A stretch of 47,431 bases of DNA, filler included, from Bacteroidales bacterium (lineage in GTDB: Bacteria; Bacteroidota; Bacteroidia; Bacteroidales; CAIWKO01), in assembly GCA_035389045.1 (NCBI GenBank). It is 13 parts of 13 records of this genome, joined end to end, with 100 filler letters (N's around TTAATTAATTAA, not from the genome) between each part and the next. Parts side by side here need not be neighbours in the genome. Positions count along the whole stretch, not along the records: positions 26,696 to 30,192 come from DAOORA010000129.1; 12 more parts are not named here. One strand, written 5' to 3'. Of this stretch, positions 5,565 through 30,486 are shown piece after piece (position 1 is the first letter of the stretch; each line of letters begins with the position of its first letter). Both the position numbers and the translations under genes were made by a program. Below the pieces are notes generated by a model that was not told where the DNA came from, made no database searches, and saw only the letters and a list, made by a program, of their open reading frames with translations.

Positions 5565-5627
5565 AGTTAGGAGTTAGGAGTCGGGAGTTGGGAGTCGGGA
5601 GTCGGGCGGTCCCGATAGCTATCGGGA
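5565..5627 (+). repeat. Heptamer tandem repeat (GGAGTYR) followed by perfect 18-bp palindrome TCCCGATAGCTATCGGGA
   Basis: agttaggagttaggagtcgggagttgggagtcgggagtcggg, then the palindrome at 5610-5627. Confidence 0.85.
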
Positions 5628-5650
5628 AGGAGTTGGAAGACGAAAGCCTC

Positions 5651-5791: not shown

Positions 5792-8509
5792 TTACTGCTT
5801 TATAAATTTCAACACACCGATCTTTTTTTCTGTTTGTAATTTCACAAAATACATGCCTCTTGAAAGGTCAGAAATATCAATATTTGTTTTATCTCCATTT
5901 GCATATATCCTTTTGATCAATTGTCCCTGGAAATTAATAATTTCAATTTCCGATCTTATATTGGTTTCAACAGTAATGTAATCATTTGCCGGGTTTGGGT
6001 AAATATTGAATTGAAGATGCTGCTTATGGCGATCATCGATTCCTGAAATTGAGCTTCCGCAGGGTGTATGATCTTTTCGAAAGTAGCTTCTGATACTGTC
6101 AATTCTCTGATTCATCACGGTTATAGCAGCTAACTCATCCGGATCTGTAAAATCTCTTCCATACACAAAAGCAACATCTATTTCCTGTATTTCAGCAGGA
6201 GTAAAAGTAAATGGCCCGGTGGAACCGATCCCTCTGCGGTCATATGGTATATTGCCGGCTTGTGTTTCATTCCAGTAAGGTGGGTGAGCAACCGCGACTC
6301 CATCAGTGCCCCAGTCACAAGGATCTGAATCGCCGGGAAACATAAAATTACATGCCGGGCCGGTAGCGCCTGCTGATGGATGTCCGTTGCCCCAATATTT
6401 CAAGTGTACTCCGTCTTTCCAGAAACCCCGCAAATAGTTATAATAGTCAGCAGCGGTATCAGGAATAGTCAAGGAACCAAAGCCACCAATGCCGTTAGGA
6501 ATGATAAAACCACTCATACCATGATGCTCATCATCGGTAATACCATTGCCAAAATTGAAGCCATTCAATCCTTCATCACACAAGCCGGCAGGATTGTCTG
6601 TACCATCATCATCCATTTTAGCGCCTGAGAGGAAAACAATTGACTGAGCAGGCGGATTTGCGCCATATCCGAGAGGATTGACATACCCCTGATCGATACT
6701 ATCTCCGTTATAAGCATAAAAAGCGCCTCTTGTAACATCGCTGGCAATGAAATCATCATCAGGACCGCCTAATGCCACATCAATATATAACCCTATAAAA
6801 GAACTATCGTAAGTTGACGCAGAACGATTGAAGATTTTATAATTGAGAAAAACAGTGTTCCACAACGCTGAATCGGCATTGCAATCAAAACTATATGCCA
6901 TAGCATGCACTTCGATCCTTAACTTATTACCTTCGCTTTCCGTATGTGGTTTACGGTCGTCATTGAAAATAAAGAGAACAGTTTCGTCGCCTTTGATCAG
7001 AGGAAAATCTCCGGCGAAAGGATCATAAATACCATCGTTATTCCAGTCTTTGAAAGGAGCCAGAATTGGCGCTTGTCCCAGGGCTGTATCACCGTTTCCG
7101 GGCCAATTGATCAATGCCTGTGAAGGAATATATCCCGGGTCGAAGCAATGAGCCATGTGATTATCAATATCCGACTTTTTTATTCTCCACACCCTGTTCC
7201 ATTTTTCCGACTCCTGCGAATAGAAAGCAGAATCCATAACAGGTCCGGGGAAATAATCAAATCCCTTGCCATGATATAGTTCGCCTGCCACATGCAGTTG
7301 ACCATTGGCATCTTTTCCGCCAACCCACAATGTCCCGGAAAACAAGGTATTTCTTCCGCTGCCCTTTGGAACTTCAAAAGTTGGAGTACCATTAAAATCC
7401 CAGAATAGCTGCCCGCCGGCATTAAATCTTGCCTTAATATTATTTGCTGATAAAAAATCATAAGCATCATACATCGTACCTTCATTAAAATTCAATGATT
7501 TCAGTTTGATCACTTTGCCGGGCGCGCTTCCTACTGACCATAATATATTATTCATATCGGAACAGATGTAATATGGTCTAAACTGGTAATATCCAGCCAA
7601 TAAAAAAATATAATTCATATAATAAGCTAAATATGAATCATCTGATGGGTTTACTTTGATAATAAACTGATCTGATGGGCCGAACTGCGGAGCAGCATAA
7701 TTTAGCAGTCCGGGTATTAAAACTTCATTATGTATGTTAGTAGTAATCGACCAGACTTCTATGGAATCATTTTTCTGAGGAATATTACAAATGGCTGTAA
7801 GGGGTTTGAACACATTATTGCTCATCCGGTATGCACCTGCCTTTGTGCCTATCCACAAATTGTTGTTTATATCATTTTTCAAACAGTGAATATGGCTGCT
7901 TTTCAATCCCGAATTCAAACTGTCATAATTCGTGAAAAAATTATTGTACAAACACGACAAACCCCTGATCGTTCCGATCCACACAGTATTGTTGTCAGCA
8001 AACTCGATTGATGTAATCGTGTCATTGACAAGGCCGGAATTTAATGAATAATAATATTGCCAATACTGACCATTATATATTGCCAGACCTTTGTTGGTGC
8101 CGACCCACAGCTTACCATTCCCATAATTAACAGCATTTACATGATTATTCAACAAACCATTAGCCGTATCATATAGTGTCCAGGACGAATTTCCGTCGAA
8201 TTTGGCAAGCCCCTTTTTTGTTCCCGCATAAATATCATTATTATATACAAACAGGCAGGTCATTTTGTCAGAAGGCAATGTTGAATTTGAAGTATCATAC
8301 ATGGTCCATGCAGTGCCGTCAAATTTTCCCAGGCCAATGGATGCGTAGGCTACCCATTTATTGTTCGAAGCATCTATTTCCAAACCTGATTTAAATTCTA
8401 ACTGCCCGAACGAATAACCGTCCGGATCGGGATAAATGGTAACTCCATCCTGTCCGTATCCACATAAATACGGAACTATCAGTAATAAAAAAAAGAATAA
8501 TTTTCTCAT
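5792..8509 (-). CDS. T9SS type A secreted protein with N-terminal regulator-propeller-like repeats
   Basis: Signal peptide; repeats of the form LWxGTxxGL...NSGL; C-terminal IYPNPA...LSRGMYFVKL...KFIKQ. Confidence 0.85.
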   Translation of the reverse strand: MRKLFFFLLLIVPYLCGYGQDGVTIYPDPDGYSFGQLEFKSGLEIDASNNKWVAYASIGLGKFDGTAWTMYDTSNSTLPSDKMTCLFVYNNDIYAGTKKGLAKFDGNSSWTLYDTANGLLNNHVNAVNYGNGKLWVGTNKGLAIYNGQYWQYYYSLNSGLVNDTITSIEFADNNTVWIGTIRGLSCLYNNFFTNYDSLNSGLKSSHIHCLKNDINNNLWIGTKAGAYRMSNNVFKPLTAICNIPQKNDSIEVWSITTNIHNEVLIPGLLNYAAPQFGPSDQFIIKVNPSDDSYLAYYMNYIFLLAGYYQFRPYYICSDMNNILWSVGSAPGKVIKLKSLNFNEGTMYDAYDFLSANNIKARFNAGGQLFWDFNGTPTFEVPKGSGRNTLFSGTLWVGGKDANGQLHVAGELYHGKGFDYFPGPVMDSAFYSQESEKWNRVWRIKKSDIDNHMAHCFDPGYIPSQALINWPGNGDTALGQAPILAPFKDWNNDGIYDPFAGDFPLIKGDETVLFIFNDDRKPHTESEGNKLRIEVHAMAYSFDCNADSALWNTVFLNYKIFNRSASTYDSSFIGLYIDVALGGPDDDFIASDVTRGAFYAYNGDSIDQGYVNPLGYGANPPAQSIVFLSGAKMDDDGTDNPAGLCDEGLNGFNFGNGITDDEHHGMSGFIIPNGIGGFGSLTIPDTAADYYNYLRGFWKDGVHLKYWGNGHPSAGATGPACNFMFPGDSDPCDWGTDGVAVAHPPYWNETQAGNIPYDRRGIGSTGPFTFTPAEIQEIDVAFVYGRDFTDPDELAAITVMNQRIDSIRSYFRKDHTPCGSSISGIDDRHKQHLQFNIYPNPANDYITVETNIRSEIEIINFQGQLIKRIYANGDKTNIDISDLSRGMYFVKLQTEKKIGVLKFIKQ

Positions 8510-28449: not shown

Positions 28450-28548
28450 AAATATGTTTTGAATAATTGAAATCACTTTCGTCTAAGAATTCAAGCAAAC
28501 AAGATTTATCATTTTGCAGTGAACTGATAAAAACTTTTTTATCATATA

Positions 28549-28707
28549 GAAACTGTTTTGATTTTATGTTACATAAGATTTATGATGGATTTTTTAGCGA
28601 AACGAGGCAGATTTTGCAGACATAGTTTATCCTATGTCGAAAAATCTAACGAAGTTGCAGCAAAAAAGACGCATAAAGATATGAAAAGATAAAATCAAAA
28701 CAATTTC
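28549..28707. mobile_element. Complete 159-bp MITE with 22-bp TIR and ATA on both sides
   Basis: GAAACTGTTTTGATTTTATGTT ... AAGATAAAATCAAAACAATTTC; partial copies at contig ends 15088-15114, 30293-30360 and 33524-33571. Confidence 0.88.
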
Positions 28708-28728: not shown

Positions 28729-29214
28729 ATGAATGAATGGAAATTACCTCCAAAGGAAAAAATCTACGAAGCATTCTGTGTTCTTGCAGACAAAAGATAC
28801 ACGATAGAATCGGCCGGAAAAGCATATATTACCTCATCCGGAAGAAACAAACAATATACTCTGGAATGGACGGAAGAGCACACGCCTTCGGCAATTGTGA
28901 TAAAAATCTCATCTAATGACAATGCCTCCTATTGGCAGGGTTATACCGGATATCCAATAATTGCCGTTTTGATGATCATTGACAAACTGCACTTTGATAA
29001 AAATATTCTAAAGTATTTAAAAAACATCCCCTGGAAAGTCCTGAATAAAACGTATAACAATAACTACACCAGGGCGGCAGAAAAAATACTTACTGATATA
29101 GATAATGAAGCCGTGGCTGTGAAGATCAGATCGGAAGTGGACAATGTTTTCAGTCAGTTATCCGGCTTGTGTCTGGTCAAACCGGATAAATTTATAAAAC
29201 CTCCAAAAGATTGA
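28729..29214 (+). CDS. Hypothetical protein
   Basis: 161-aa ORF (WKLPPKEKIYEA...SNDNASYWQGYTGYPIIAVLM); function not recognised. Confidence 0.7.
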   Translation: MNEWKLPPKEKIYEAFCVLADKRYTIESAGKAYITSSGRNKQYTLEWTEEHTPSAIVIKISSNDNASYWQGYTGYPIIAVLMIIDKLHFDKNILKYLKNIPWKVLNKTYNNNYTRAAEKILTDIDNEAVAVKIRSEVDNVFSQLSGLCLVKPDKFIKPPKD

Positions 29215-29606: not shown

Positions 29607-29730
29607 CACTCCCGATTTTGGGAAGTGCAATGGGCACTCTTGCCTGTTTGTTTTGTCAAGCAAGGCTGTTGGTGTGGTTGATTTTTTTAATGATTCATTG
29701 GCCCAAAAGATTGCGGGTTTAAAAAGATTG

Positions 29731-29805
29731 GGGAGCATAGCTCAGCTGGTTCAGAGCACCTGCCTTACAAGCAGGGGGTCATAGGTTCGAATCCTATTGT
29801 TCCCA
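29731..29805 (+). tRNA. tRNA-Val (anticodon TAC), CCA not encoded
   Basis: Acceptor GGGAGCA/TGTTCCC, D arm GCTC/GAGC, anticodon arm CCTGC-CTTACAA-GCAGG, T arm ATAGG-TTCGAAT-CCTAT. Confidence 0.96.
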
Positions 29806-29856
29806 CCCATAAAACAGAGGTCGCAGAAATTATTTTCCGGGACCTTTTTCATTAAA

Positions 29857-30102
29857 ATGTGTTTTGTCTATATATTATATTCGTTCGCCAGAGACCGGTA
29901 TTATATCGGTATAACAAAAAATATTGAGGACAGGATTCGCAGGCATAATAGTAATCATAAGGGATTTACAGGAGGGTCGGGTGACTGGGGTTTGGTCTGG
30001 CAGCGGGGTTTTGAGGATAAGAGGTCAGCATTATCTGAAGAGAAAAAGATAAAAGGTTGGAAAAGCAGGGTAAAGATAGAAAAGCTGATTTCGTCTGAAT
30101 AG
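29857..30102 (+). CDS. Stand-alone GIY-YIG nuclease family protein (81 aa)
   Basis: FVYILYS...YYIGIT...RIRRHN...FT...W...ALSEEKKIKGWKSR; ATG 29857 lies just after a terminator-like hairpin. Confidence 0.9.
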   Translation: MCFVYILYSFARDRYYIGITKNIEDRIRRHNSNHKGFTGGSGDWGLVWQRGFEDKRSALSEEKKIKGWKSRVKIEKLISSE

Positions 30103-30104
30103 AT

Positions 30105-30192
30105 GCTGGTTCAGAGCATCCCGACAGCACGTCGGGAGGGTCATAGGTTCGAATCCTATTGTTCCCACCCATAAAACAGAGGTCGCAGAAAT
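30105..30192 (+). pseudogene. tRNA-Val-derived direct repeat with the anticodon arm replaced; cut by the contig end
   Basis: 30105-30118 equals 29745-29758 and 30138-30192 equals 29776-29830; TCCCGAC-AGCAC-GTCGGGA lies between them. Confidence 0.9.
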
Positions 30193-30486
30193 NNNNNNNN
30201 NNNNNNNNNNNNNNNNNNNNNNNNNNNNNNNNNNNNTTAATTAATTAANNNNNNNNNNNNNNNNNNNNNNNNNNNNNNNNNNNNNNNNNNNNCAAAATCT
30301 GCCTCGTTTCGCTAAAAAATCCATCATAAATCTTATGTAACATAAAAGCAAAACAGTTTCTAAACACTAAAATAAATTAATTTATTGAATGAACGTAGGA
30401 ATTTTTTTCACGTTCCGATAAATTCTTTCCATATCCTAATTTTATAAGGATATAAAGTGTAAATTTGCAGGGAAAAGAGGGATGTG

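Follow-up and report, generated by a model that had tools for sequence, protein, structure and literature searches.

We describe here a small locus of a Bacteroidales bacterium (GenBank assembly GCA_035389045.1), in which an intact tRNA-Val(TAC) gene is followed by a gene for an 81-aa GIY-YIG protein, and this in turn by a partial copy of the same tRNA in which a perfect hairpin has taken the place of the anticodon arm. The DNA analyzed, termed the window, is a stretch of 47,431 nt made up of thirteen small contigs from one 135-contig metagenome-type assembly, with N44-TTAATTAATTAA-N44 linkers between them; the locus lies at the 3′ end of one of these, C129 (DAOORA010000129.1). The same arrangement is found at tRNA genes of many other genomes, and the locus is probably one copy, with several copies probably standing in tandem here, of a widespread tRNA-linked element consisting of a GIY-YIG gene and an arm-swapped tRNA. 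It looks like a selfish or semi-domesticated nuclease element. We consider it reasonably likely that a nuclease and its cognate hairpin form one module here, which uses tRNA homology to persist, amplify and spread; cleavage at the hairpin would be expected by analogy with the characterized nuclease SsnA.

The tRNA-Val(TAC) gene (29731-29807) is the only tRNA that ARAGORN calls in the window, and the sole Val-TAC gene found genome-wide. Its 3′ part belongs to a direct repeat, R, of which 55 nt are matched within the window and 78 nt are exact in comparison with positions 363-440 of a further contig of the genome, C49. The ATG of the GIY-YIG gene is just 4 nt 3′ of the first copy of R. Two bases past the stop codon of this open reading frame (ORF) the partial tRNA copy begins within the D loop, at 30105; it lacks tRNA positions 1 to ~12, i.e., the 5′ acceptor strand. 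The copy is identical to the intact tRNA over 14 nt before the arm (29745-29758 and 30105-30118, a spacing of 360) and over 55 nt after it (29776-29830 and 30138-30192, a spacing of 362). Between these identities the 17-nt anticodon arm CCTGCCTTACAAGCAGG has been exchanged for the 19-nt sequence TCCCGACAGCACGTCGGGA, which as single-stranded DNA (ssDNA) is predicted to fold into a perfect 7-bp stem with a 5-nt loop (−10.5 kcal/mol, z = −6.3), a value reached by none of 200 shuffled sequences. The copy is not a tRNA, scoring 20.4 bits in Rfam (threshold 29) and eliciting no call from ARAGORN. The segment between the two copies of R is 284 nt in length, with the 81-aa gene as its only gene. The genes flanking the cassette encode a type IX secretion system (T9SS)-tailed protein, an unknown 161-aa protein, Ddl and a PASTA-domain protein, and no integrase or recombinase domain was found among them. 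An earlier sequence-only reading of the window had proposed the intact tRNA, the 81-aa gene, the second copy starting 2 nt after the stop, the two identities, the exchange of the arm for a hairpin and the lack of an integrase; all of this was confirmed, the coordinates to the base.

Is this design peculiar to one genome? We scanned a genome collection with an alignment of five cassette proteins, which matched at least 600 stretches, at least 452 of them encoding a relative. The 80 loci that were kept contain 98 homologous ORFs, 95 of which are intact, including that of the window. A same-strand tRNA ends less than 200 nt upstream, mostly at 30-60 nt, in 61 of the 89 ORFs that have at least 200 nt of upstream sequence. 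For the 95 intact ORFs the nearest upstream tRNA was Val-TAC in 39 cases, Arg-TCT in nine, Arg-ACG in three, and Val-GAC and Lys-TTT in two each; Ser-TGA, Ser-GCT, Leu-AAG, Val-AAC and two odd ARAGORN calls occurred once each, and none was called for 34. At most loci having a downstream copy, this regains identity with the tRNA at tRNA positions 43-47, where the anticodon arm has its base. The D-arm remnant that precedes the hairpin fits the local tRNA type, be it Val, Arg or Lys. The suggestion of the sequence-only reading that homologous genes might be flanked by tRNA copies with replaced arms is thus borne out, both for the tRNA upstream and for the copy downstream, where a conserved hairpin lies at the stop codon of 79 of the 95 intact ORFs.

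The family is also present at E ≤ 1e-10 in 28 of 41 related genomes, at one to eight copies each, and in 17 of 27 further loci of these relatives the gene follows a tRNA, with Thr-CGT, Pro-GGG, Asp-GTC, Asn-GTT, Arg-ACG, Met and Val-TAC among the types. The same design stands at tRNA-Val in another genus (L004), in another family of the order (L005) and in a relative of the same genus (L012); L004 and L012 came from a DNA search of the 41 related genomes. In L004 two 5′ partial copies with the arm TCCCGAC-TTTAT-GTCGGGA precede tRNA-Val(TAC) and a terminator, and these are followed by an 82-aa GIY-YIG gene and a 3′ partial copy that starts in the D loop and carries the arm TCCCGAC-TTCAA-GTCGGGA. 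L005 is an array of at least eight tRNA-Val-like units with two intact tRNAs and two copies of the gene, each gene being followed by a D-loop-truncated copy with the arm TTCCGTCTTAAAACGGAA; several of the units are labeled 'tRNA-???' with a two-base anticodon by ARAGORN. Within this locus (genome G023, 1206-2947) there are full-length tRNA-Val-like units with the hairpin arm, some with an intact acceptor stem (e.g., 2368-2444), and it is as tRNAs with such two-base anticodons that ARAGORN lists them.

Tandem arrays are frequent. Two to four gene units stand in many of the 80 loci, and triple arrays follow Thr-CGT and Pro-GGG tRNAs in two relatives. In a single-contig genome of 4.9 Mb (G018), three units recur at a 401-nt period behind a tRNA-Asp, and every unit closes with a partial copy that bears the hairpin. 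In all of these arrays, L140, L141 and L142 among them, one intact tRNA is accompanied by n disabled copies. When tRNA type was placed on the protein tree, in a count that left out 37 rows without a clear upstream tRNA type, 12 changes were required on a poorly resolved tree built from 87 columns; the minimum is 3, the shuffled mean 14.9, and 3 of 200 shuffles were as low.

The hairpin is the signature of the family. A motif YCCCG...CGGGR is located between −45 and +110 of the stop codon in 79 of the 95 ORFs, and in 28 of those 79, as counted from the listing of loci, the stop codon falls within the hairpin, with the reading frame crossing the D-arm remnant. There are 169 instances of the motif in the 80 loci. 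In 156 of them the stem is perfect over 5 bp or more, usually over 7-8 bp, and the loop usually measures 3-5 nt. They comprise 99 distinct hairpin sequences. The loops are free, and the inner pairs vary with compensation (pair 6: AT 115, CG 18, TA 6, GC 5; pair 7: TA 80, CG 38, AT 10, GC 2). The flanks are tRNA-derived on both sides, AGCA on the 5′ side in 90 of 156 and GGGTC on the 3′ side in 74 of 156; the family consensus is (AG)AGCA-TCCCGA...TCGGGA-GGGTC. Since Val and Arg tRNAs have hairpins of the same classes beside them, the hairpin goes with the cassette and not with the tRNA type. Hairpin class also clusters on the protein tree, with 24 changes compared to 33.4 when shuffled and none of 300 shuffles as low, a contrast that tandem near-copies inflate.

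The motif was additionally found upstream of the intact tRNA in 27 of 55 loci. Among 44 such upstream hairpins, 29 are preceded by the full 5′ part of the tRNA (26-28 nt), and behind 25 the tRNA homology extends for only 8-13 nt; the upstream hairpins are often present as two or three tandem copies. Upstream and downstream hairpins of one locus are usually identical or one base apart, and have the same orientation. They are therefore direct repeats, which argues against transposition by way of inverted terminal repeats. The full form of the element, represented at about half of the related loci, would then be [5′ partial copy + hairpin]-tRNA-nuclease gene-[3′ partial copy + hairpin]; the locus in the window has no 5′ partial copy. 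In five relatives of the same genus (G001, G002, G007, G008 and G009) all that accompanies tRNA-Val(TAC) is a 5′ hairpin copy directly before it, and the contig concerned yielded no family member at E ≤ 1e-10. These loci, one of which (L003) was read base by base, look like scars left after loss of the gene by recombination between R repeats.

We have also analyzed the protein. Its 81 residues make up a GIY-YIG domain and no other (PF01541, match over residues 1-71, E = 1e-15, 58.2 bits with a cut-off of 22.6). The catalytic residues of GIY-YIG nucleases are the tyrosine of 'GIY', the tyrosine of 'YIG', an arginine, a histidine or tyrosine, and a glutamate. Y5, Y16, G18, R26, H30 and E62 are present here, and are conserved at 98% or above in the 95 intact homologs. 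In a profile search the closest solved structures were UPF0213 protein BH0048 (1zg2, E = 3.9e-11), SLX1 (7cq2, E = 5.6e-6) and UPF0213 protein EF2693 (1ywl, E = 8.7e-5), and the match to I-TevI (1mk0) was marginal (E = 0.16). The NCBIfam model for group I intron endonucleases, TIGR01453, gave 16.7 bits, below its cut-off of 56.05. By its sequence the protein is a single-domain UPF0213/Ssn-like GIY-YIG protein, closest to domains of the UPF0213/SLX1 type, and it is probably a member of the Ssn family of hairpin-specific ssDNA nucleases, whose size of about 80-110 aa it fits. A tblastn search with the protein gave no match in 50,697 phage records at E ≤ 1e-3, and a phage origin is thus unsupported. 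We likewise rejected a classical homing endonuclease of the Seg or I-TevI type, given that there is no extra domain, that TIGR01453 and I-TevI score as they do, and that no phage protein matches.

How might the gene be expressed? A consensus promoter scan found nothing above chance for the GIY-YIG gene (3 found, 1.9 expected). Since the gene has no recognizable promoter and starts immediately after the tRNA trailer, it is likely to be expressed by read-through from the tRNA promoter. The trailer contains a terminator-like stem-loop (DNA fold z = −3.5, with 1 of 200 shuffles as good), which a consensus terminator scan did not call. The features of the locus are collected in Table 1.

Table 1. 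Features of the tRNA-linked GIY-YIG locus and its contig, in window coordinates
Feature	Position	Strand	Basis or remark
Contig C129	26696-30192		Cassette at the 3′ end of C129
Intact tRNA-Val(TAC)	29731-29807	+	ARAGORN; Rfam tRNA, 73.8 bits
Repeat R, copy 1 (78 nt)	29776-29853	+	tRNA variable loop to 3′ end, plus 46 nt of trailer
Terminator-like stem-loop AGGTC...GACCT, T run after it	29818-29850	+	Within R
81-aa GIY-YIG ORF	29857-30102 (ATG 29857, stop 30100-30102)	+	Pfam PF01541
D-arm remnant of the partial tRNA copy, GCTGGTTCAGAGCA	30105-30118	+	Identical to 29745-29758
Signature hairpin TCCCGAC-AGCAC-GTCGGGA	30119-30137	+	Sequence and fold
Repeat R, copy 2, ended by the contig end	30138-30192	+	23 further identical bases in C49 of the same genome (G000:C49)
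Artificial contig joiner, N44-TTAATTAATTAA-N44	30193-30292	.	Not biology

C129 ends inside the second copy of R, and the sequence-only reading had surmised that the array might continue beyond this point. Contig C49 (35 kb) opens with 417 nt identical to the end of C129 and then continues; after its second R come single-copy DNA, ddl on the opposite strand and the PASTA-domain gene. Because C49 prolongs the identity and then diverges, the exact repeat R can be set at 78 nt. The order is A-R-B-R in C129 and R-B-R-C in C49, i.e., the two contigs are a loop in the assembly graph, with the number of turns left undecided by the assembler. The junction running from the end of the gene through the D-arm remnant and hairpin into R was found with zero mismatches in Logan contigs of four public runs, one of which may be the source sample. 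It follows that the junction is not a misassembly of this genome alone, and the worry, voiced with the first description, that the second copy might be misassembled has not materialized.

The number of units was approached through the k-mer depths of the Logan contigs (k = 31). In run X1 the depth is 35.1 over a 17-kb flank contig, 145.9 over the gene, 132.1 over the gene-hairpin junction and 178.7 over R. Relative to the flank this makes 4.2, 3.8 and 5.1, which fit n, n and n + 1 with n = 4, and run X2 gives ~3 units at much lower depth; depth in a metagenome is not copy number, and other strains or circles could raise it. Parts of the stretch are uncovered in runs X3 and X4, which is evidence neither way, and a joint in X4 that 'goes back 362' proves no tandem join, as contigs of k = 31 cannot span the 78-nt R. 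A second version of the gene, 7% diverged, is also present; over 171 nt it differs at 12 positions (7 changes being synonymous and 5 non-synonymous) and has no stop. The depths thus give a hint of about four tandem units at the C129/C49 locus. That arrays continue is common in the relatives; in this genome the depth gives the hint, and C49 itself shows a second R and then single-copy DNA.

Other copies are present elsewhere in this genome. Contig C22 carries a paralog, 42% identical, behind which stand a nested hairpin, TCCCGAT...ATCGGGA, and a Val-CAC-like tRNA 3′ end, and C1 has a decayed copy of the gene after tRNA-Arg(ACG). After the tRNA-Val(GAC) of C59 (G000:C59:5319-6100) there are three gene-less partial copies in tandem, with a 226-nt period; in these the arm is replaced by a nested hairpin TCCCGAC[...]GTCGGGA, and a second hairpin, TTCCGATAGCCATCGGAA, lies in the T loop. 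Hairpin copies are thus found at all three tRNA-Val isoacceptor loci of the genome. About 400 nt beyond the C59 array there is a fourth, diverged partial copy (~6370-6500). Genome-wide, TCCCGA...TCGGGA hairpins number 34, as against 0, 7, 4 and 2 for control palindromes, and they include families outside tRNAs that resemble repetitive extragenic palindromic (REP) elements.

One such REP-like arrangement, TCCCGAC-N12-GTCGGGA with a second, GC-rich hairpin CCCCGCC...GGCGGGG after it, has five non-tRNA copies (C12:78188, C22:48816, C25:1594, C34:21385 and C107:2198). The cassette nuclease might have additional substrates in them. A perfect 18-nt palindrome, TCCCGATAGCTATCGGGA, which has the same stem as the cassette hairpin, occurs at 5565-5630 of the window (the start of C121) and at no fewer than 12 other places in the genome (e.g., C14:26398 and C70:22526-23063), within long repeat arrays of GGGAGT-type hexamers and often at contig ends. 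It is found in identical form upstream of tRNA-Val in two foreign loci (L046 and L052), and between tRNA genes in another (L125).

The nearest published system is that of SsnA from Neisseria meningitidis, a single-domain GIY-YIG protein assigned to CDD cd10448, GIY-YIG_unchar_3 (Chenal et al., 2025, PMC11893778). According to that paper, the NTS hairpin CGTCATTCCCGCGMAVGCGGGAATCYRG is bound by SsnA as ssDNA and in no other form, and the cut is made beside the hairpin TTCCCG...CGGGAA; NTS repeats are dispersed in Neisseria, where SsnA restricts incoming single-stranded DNA, and ssnA is often flanked by NTS hairpins, a repeat-gene-repeat layout that its authors liken to insertion sequences (PMC11893778). 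The cassette shares with this system a small single-domain GIY-YIG protein, a gene flanked by short hairpin repeats and more copies dispersed in the genome. The common stem is TCCCG...CGGGA, NTS being CGTCATTCCCGCG-MAV-GCGGGAATCYRG and the cassette hairpin GAGCATCCCGAC-AGCAC-GTCGGGAGGGTC. In contrast to NTS, the cassette hairpin is embedded in DNA of tRNA origin, at precisely the site of the anticodon arm, and the gene is in the transcription unit of the tRNA; moreover SsnA has been characterized enzymatically, whereas the cassette is known here from its sequence. In the main text of Chenal et al. (PMC11893778) the word 'tRNA' has 0 occurrences. Supplementary Data 4 of the same paper lists four of the five cassette-bearing species found in it (L030, L036, L039 and L080) as 'ssnA homolog YES, cd10448 YES' with a score >100, and the fifth (L019) as psiblast-only; the enrichment given in its table for the Ssn-related motif (SRM) in those Bacteroidota genomes is about 0.3-1.5, and only 0.5-1.5 for the four (PMC11893778). 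In its sequence the hairpin comes closer to the cognate hairpins of Ssn nucleases than to an immunity site, one of the roles first suggested for it. We searched for exact NTS in 401 genomes of one order and obtained one match in one genome, whose GIY-YIG genes comprise another tRNA-linked cassette and two genes with other flanking repeats, none of them callable as SsnA.

A second precedent is SegB of T-even phages, a free-standing homing endonuclease. In T6 this GIY-YIG protein drives tandem amplification of a 718-bp unit of tRNA-Tyr and segB, and the repeats meet where the nuclease gene ends and the 5′ part of the tRNA follows (PMC13096335). SegB homologs are enriched beside phage tRNA genes in a survey of phage and archaeal-virus proteins only (PMC13096335), and SegB is like the cassette in having a GIY-YIG gene beside tRNA genes and tandem units of tRNA and nuclease. 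It differs in being a phage protein with additional domains, and in that no signature hairpin or arm-swapped pseudo-tRNA is described for it. SegB is about 220 aa in size. UPF0213 (BH0048 and EF2693) and SLX1 are the best structural matches and have the GIY-YIG catalytic residues; the UPF0213 structures are structural-genomics entries labeled hypothetical, and SLX1, a structure-specific nuclease of eukaryotes, acts together with SLX4 and has a further domain. We know of no link to tRNA for either. The enzymes of IS200/IS605 elements and of REP/RAYT (REP-associated tyrosine transposase) systems are HUH enzymes; GIY-YIG enzymes hydrolyze their substrate and form no covalent intermediate. The enzyme class of the cassette is different, its hairpins are direct and not inverted repeats, and no target tetranucleotide is evident. 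It does share with IS200/IS605 and REP/RAYT a small gene flanked by hairpins that the enzyme recognizes, putatively so in the cassette, as ssDNA, together with dispersed gene-less copies, a comparison made for SsnA in the discussion of PMC11893778. A search of the open-access literature, with subscription journals outside its scope, found no published description of small GIY-YIG genes with arm-swapped tRNA copies. What appears to be new, judged from sequence, is a nuclease of Ssn type together with its putative cognate hairpin repeats embedded in tRNA genes; for the window itself, the new points are how the contig end resolves, a hint from depth of about four units, and hairpin copies at all three tRNA-Val isoacceptor loci of one genome.

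How might such a module work? The gene would ride in the transcription unit of the tRNA, between a working tRNA and a disabled copy. In single-stranded DNA the nuclease might recognize its own hairpin and nick beside it, as SsnA does. Repair of the resulting breaks would draw on the tRNA homology at either side, provided by the 14-nt D-arm remnant at one end and by R, with its 78 nt, at the other, and such repair would keep the cassette in place. Unequal recombination would expand and contract arrays of gene plus hairpin copy, and of the 5′ partial copies, and occasionally the module may move to other tRNA genes via sequence blocks that tRNAs have in common. Because the replacement by the hairpin would disable the extra copy as a tRNA, only one functional tRNA-Val(TAC) would be made. 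Three routes of origin are candidates: a long duplication of the target site, an element bounded by hairpins that brings a tRNA of its own, or a 362-nt circle integrating by homologous recombination in R. The sequence-only reading had already proposed a minimal selfish unit that would target tRNA anticodon stem-loops and amplify in tandem. The tRNA association, the replaced arm, the lack of an integrase and the arrays support that proposal in part; it omitted the 5′ partial copies present at about half of the loci.

Could the gene instead serve the host? A domesticated function might adjust tRNA dosage by segmental amplification, in the manner of SegB, or restrict incoming ssDNA, in the manner of SsnA, and for both there are documented precedents (PMC13096335 and PMC11893778). 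The intactness of 95 of 98 ORFs with their catalytic residues conserved is what would be expected of such a function, as is the presence of the family in 28 of 41 relatives, and the many TCCCGA...TCGGGA hairpins outside tRNAs are comparable to the dispersed NTS repeats of Neisseria. However, the arrays (L140, L141, L142 and here) multiply the nuclease gene and dead tRNA copies and not functional tRNA. Moreover the distribution is patchy, with copy number varying among close relatives, and pseudogenized copies and gene-less scars exist. We therefore regard a host function as unlikely.

Less probable still is a role of the hairpin in RNA, either as a structured 3′ end of the nuclease mRNA or as a processing or decoy RNA that stabilizes or releases the message, with the DNA repeats as by-products. 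The position of a promoterless gene 4 nt after the tRNA trailer would suit this, and the copy is always on the strand of the gene, the stem covaries and the stop codon is often in the hairpin loop. Yet the relatives that have been characterized act on DNA (PMC11893778). The same hairpin is found in the 5′ copies that precede the tRNA, where there is no mRNA, gene-less arrays exist, and it is the sequence of the stem and not pairing alone that is constant across phyla. In addition, RNase P and RNase Z recognize the acceptor stem of a tRNA, which a copy without the 5′ acceptor strand cannot form.

The classic signature of an island integrated in a tRNA gene is a direct repeat of the 3′ part of the tRNA around foreign DNA, and the locus could on that account be taken for the decayed attL/attR duplication of an integrase-mediated insertion. 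This is very improbable, and as a candidate it is contradicted by the data. The unit is only 362 nt, with nothing except the 81-aa gene in the 284 nt between the repeats and no recombinase in the flanks; the repeat extends 46 nt past the end of the tRNA and is joined by a D-arm segment, and one conserved motif replaces the arm in well over a hundred loci at many tRNA types. The least credible account, an assembly artifact or an ordinary tRNA duplication decaying beside an unrelated small gene, could draw on a contig that ends in a repeat within a fragmented 135-contig metagenome-type assembly, but it is contradicted by the same junctions in C129 and C49, by the gene-hairpin-repeat junction in Logan contigs of four runs and by recurrence of the design in named isolate genomes and a single-contig genome, and ordinary decay would not yield a perfect 7-bp palindrome between perfect flanks.

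Some observations weigh against the self-amplifying nuclease-hairpin module that we favor. The hairpin motif as defined is missing from 16 of 95 ORFs, and no upstream tRNA is called for 28 of the 89; many of these ORFs are inner array units or lie at contig ends. The outer 5 bp of the hairpin were set by the search pattern, so that their conservation within the matches is circular and only the frequency of matches counts. On the protein tree 13 of 88 inner branches are starred, and any number of switches of tRNA type read from it is therefore provisional. The link to SsnA is indirect, as each of the genomes flagged in the published table has 5-12 small GIY-YIG ORFs, so that a 'YES' may mean a paralog. 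The published SRM, HGTCWYN(0-2)YYVSBRHN(0-5)WNVSBRGN(0-2)RNCYNB, has no match in 29701-30192, and it is not enriched in the genome, with 12 matches compared to 3, 7 and 7 in Markov-1 random genomes. By eye, TCCCGAC and TCGGGAG fit its stem halves YYVSBRH and WNVSBRG, and both flanks fail. Lastly, a benefit to the host is possible.

If the nuclease-hairpin module does behave in this way, it would account for truncated tRNA copies with palindromic arms, two-base 'anticodons', tandem arrays and contig breaks at tRNA genes, and would be a chromosomal counterpart to the reshaping of phage tRNA gene arrays by SegB. Small GIY-YIG proteins, a very large family whose sole annotation is 'nuclease family protein', would gain a natural role and a genomic context, and the Ssn nucleases would be extended to a tRNA-embedded form with different recognition flanks, useful for the development of ssDNA tools. 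A bolder and more doubtful proposal, again drawn by analogy, is that we are dealing with a new class of minimal mobile or self-amplifying element on tRNA genes, in which an Ssn-type nuclease, with its hairpin in the place of the anticodon arm, might use the tRNA flanks as homology for copying, amplification and moving between tRNA specificities. The very high transcription of tRNA genes would expose the tRNA-like DNA as single strands, and the host would survive because the element would carry or regenerate a working tRNA. Such an element would be a hidden force in tRNA gene duplication, in pseudo-tRNA arrays and in assembly breaks at tRNA loci, in Bacteroidota and other phyla.

Some further features of the region and of related genomes were noted. 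The 161-aa ORF directly 5′ of the tRNA promoter region (28729-29214) has no Pfam match. A dispersed repeat of ~70 nt is present at 28537-28616 and 30293-30372 of the window, the two being mutually inverted, and has ~66 BLAST matches genome-wide at 95-99% identity, one copy forming the very start of contig C130. It may be REP-like, promoter-bearing or similar to a miniature inverted-repeat transposable element (MITE), and is probably another cause of contig breaks. Finally, in genome G352 there are two other small GIY-YIG genes (L103 and L104), each bracketed by its own type of repeat; an example from L104 is ...GTCATTCCGATATGG...GGAATGAGGAATCT, which stands on both sides of the gene. This suggests that a small GIY-YIG gene with a private flanking repeat is a general theme, played out with several repeat families.

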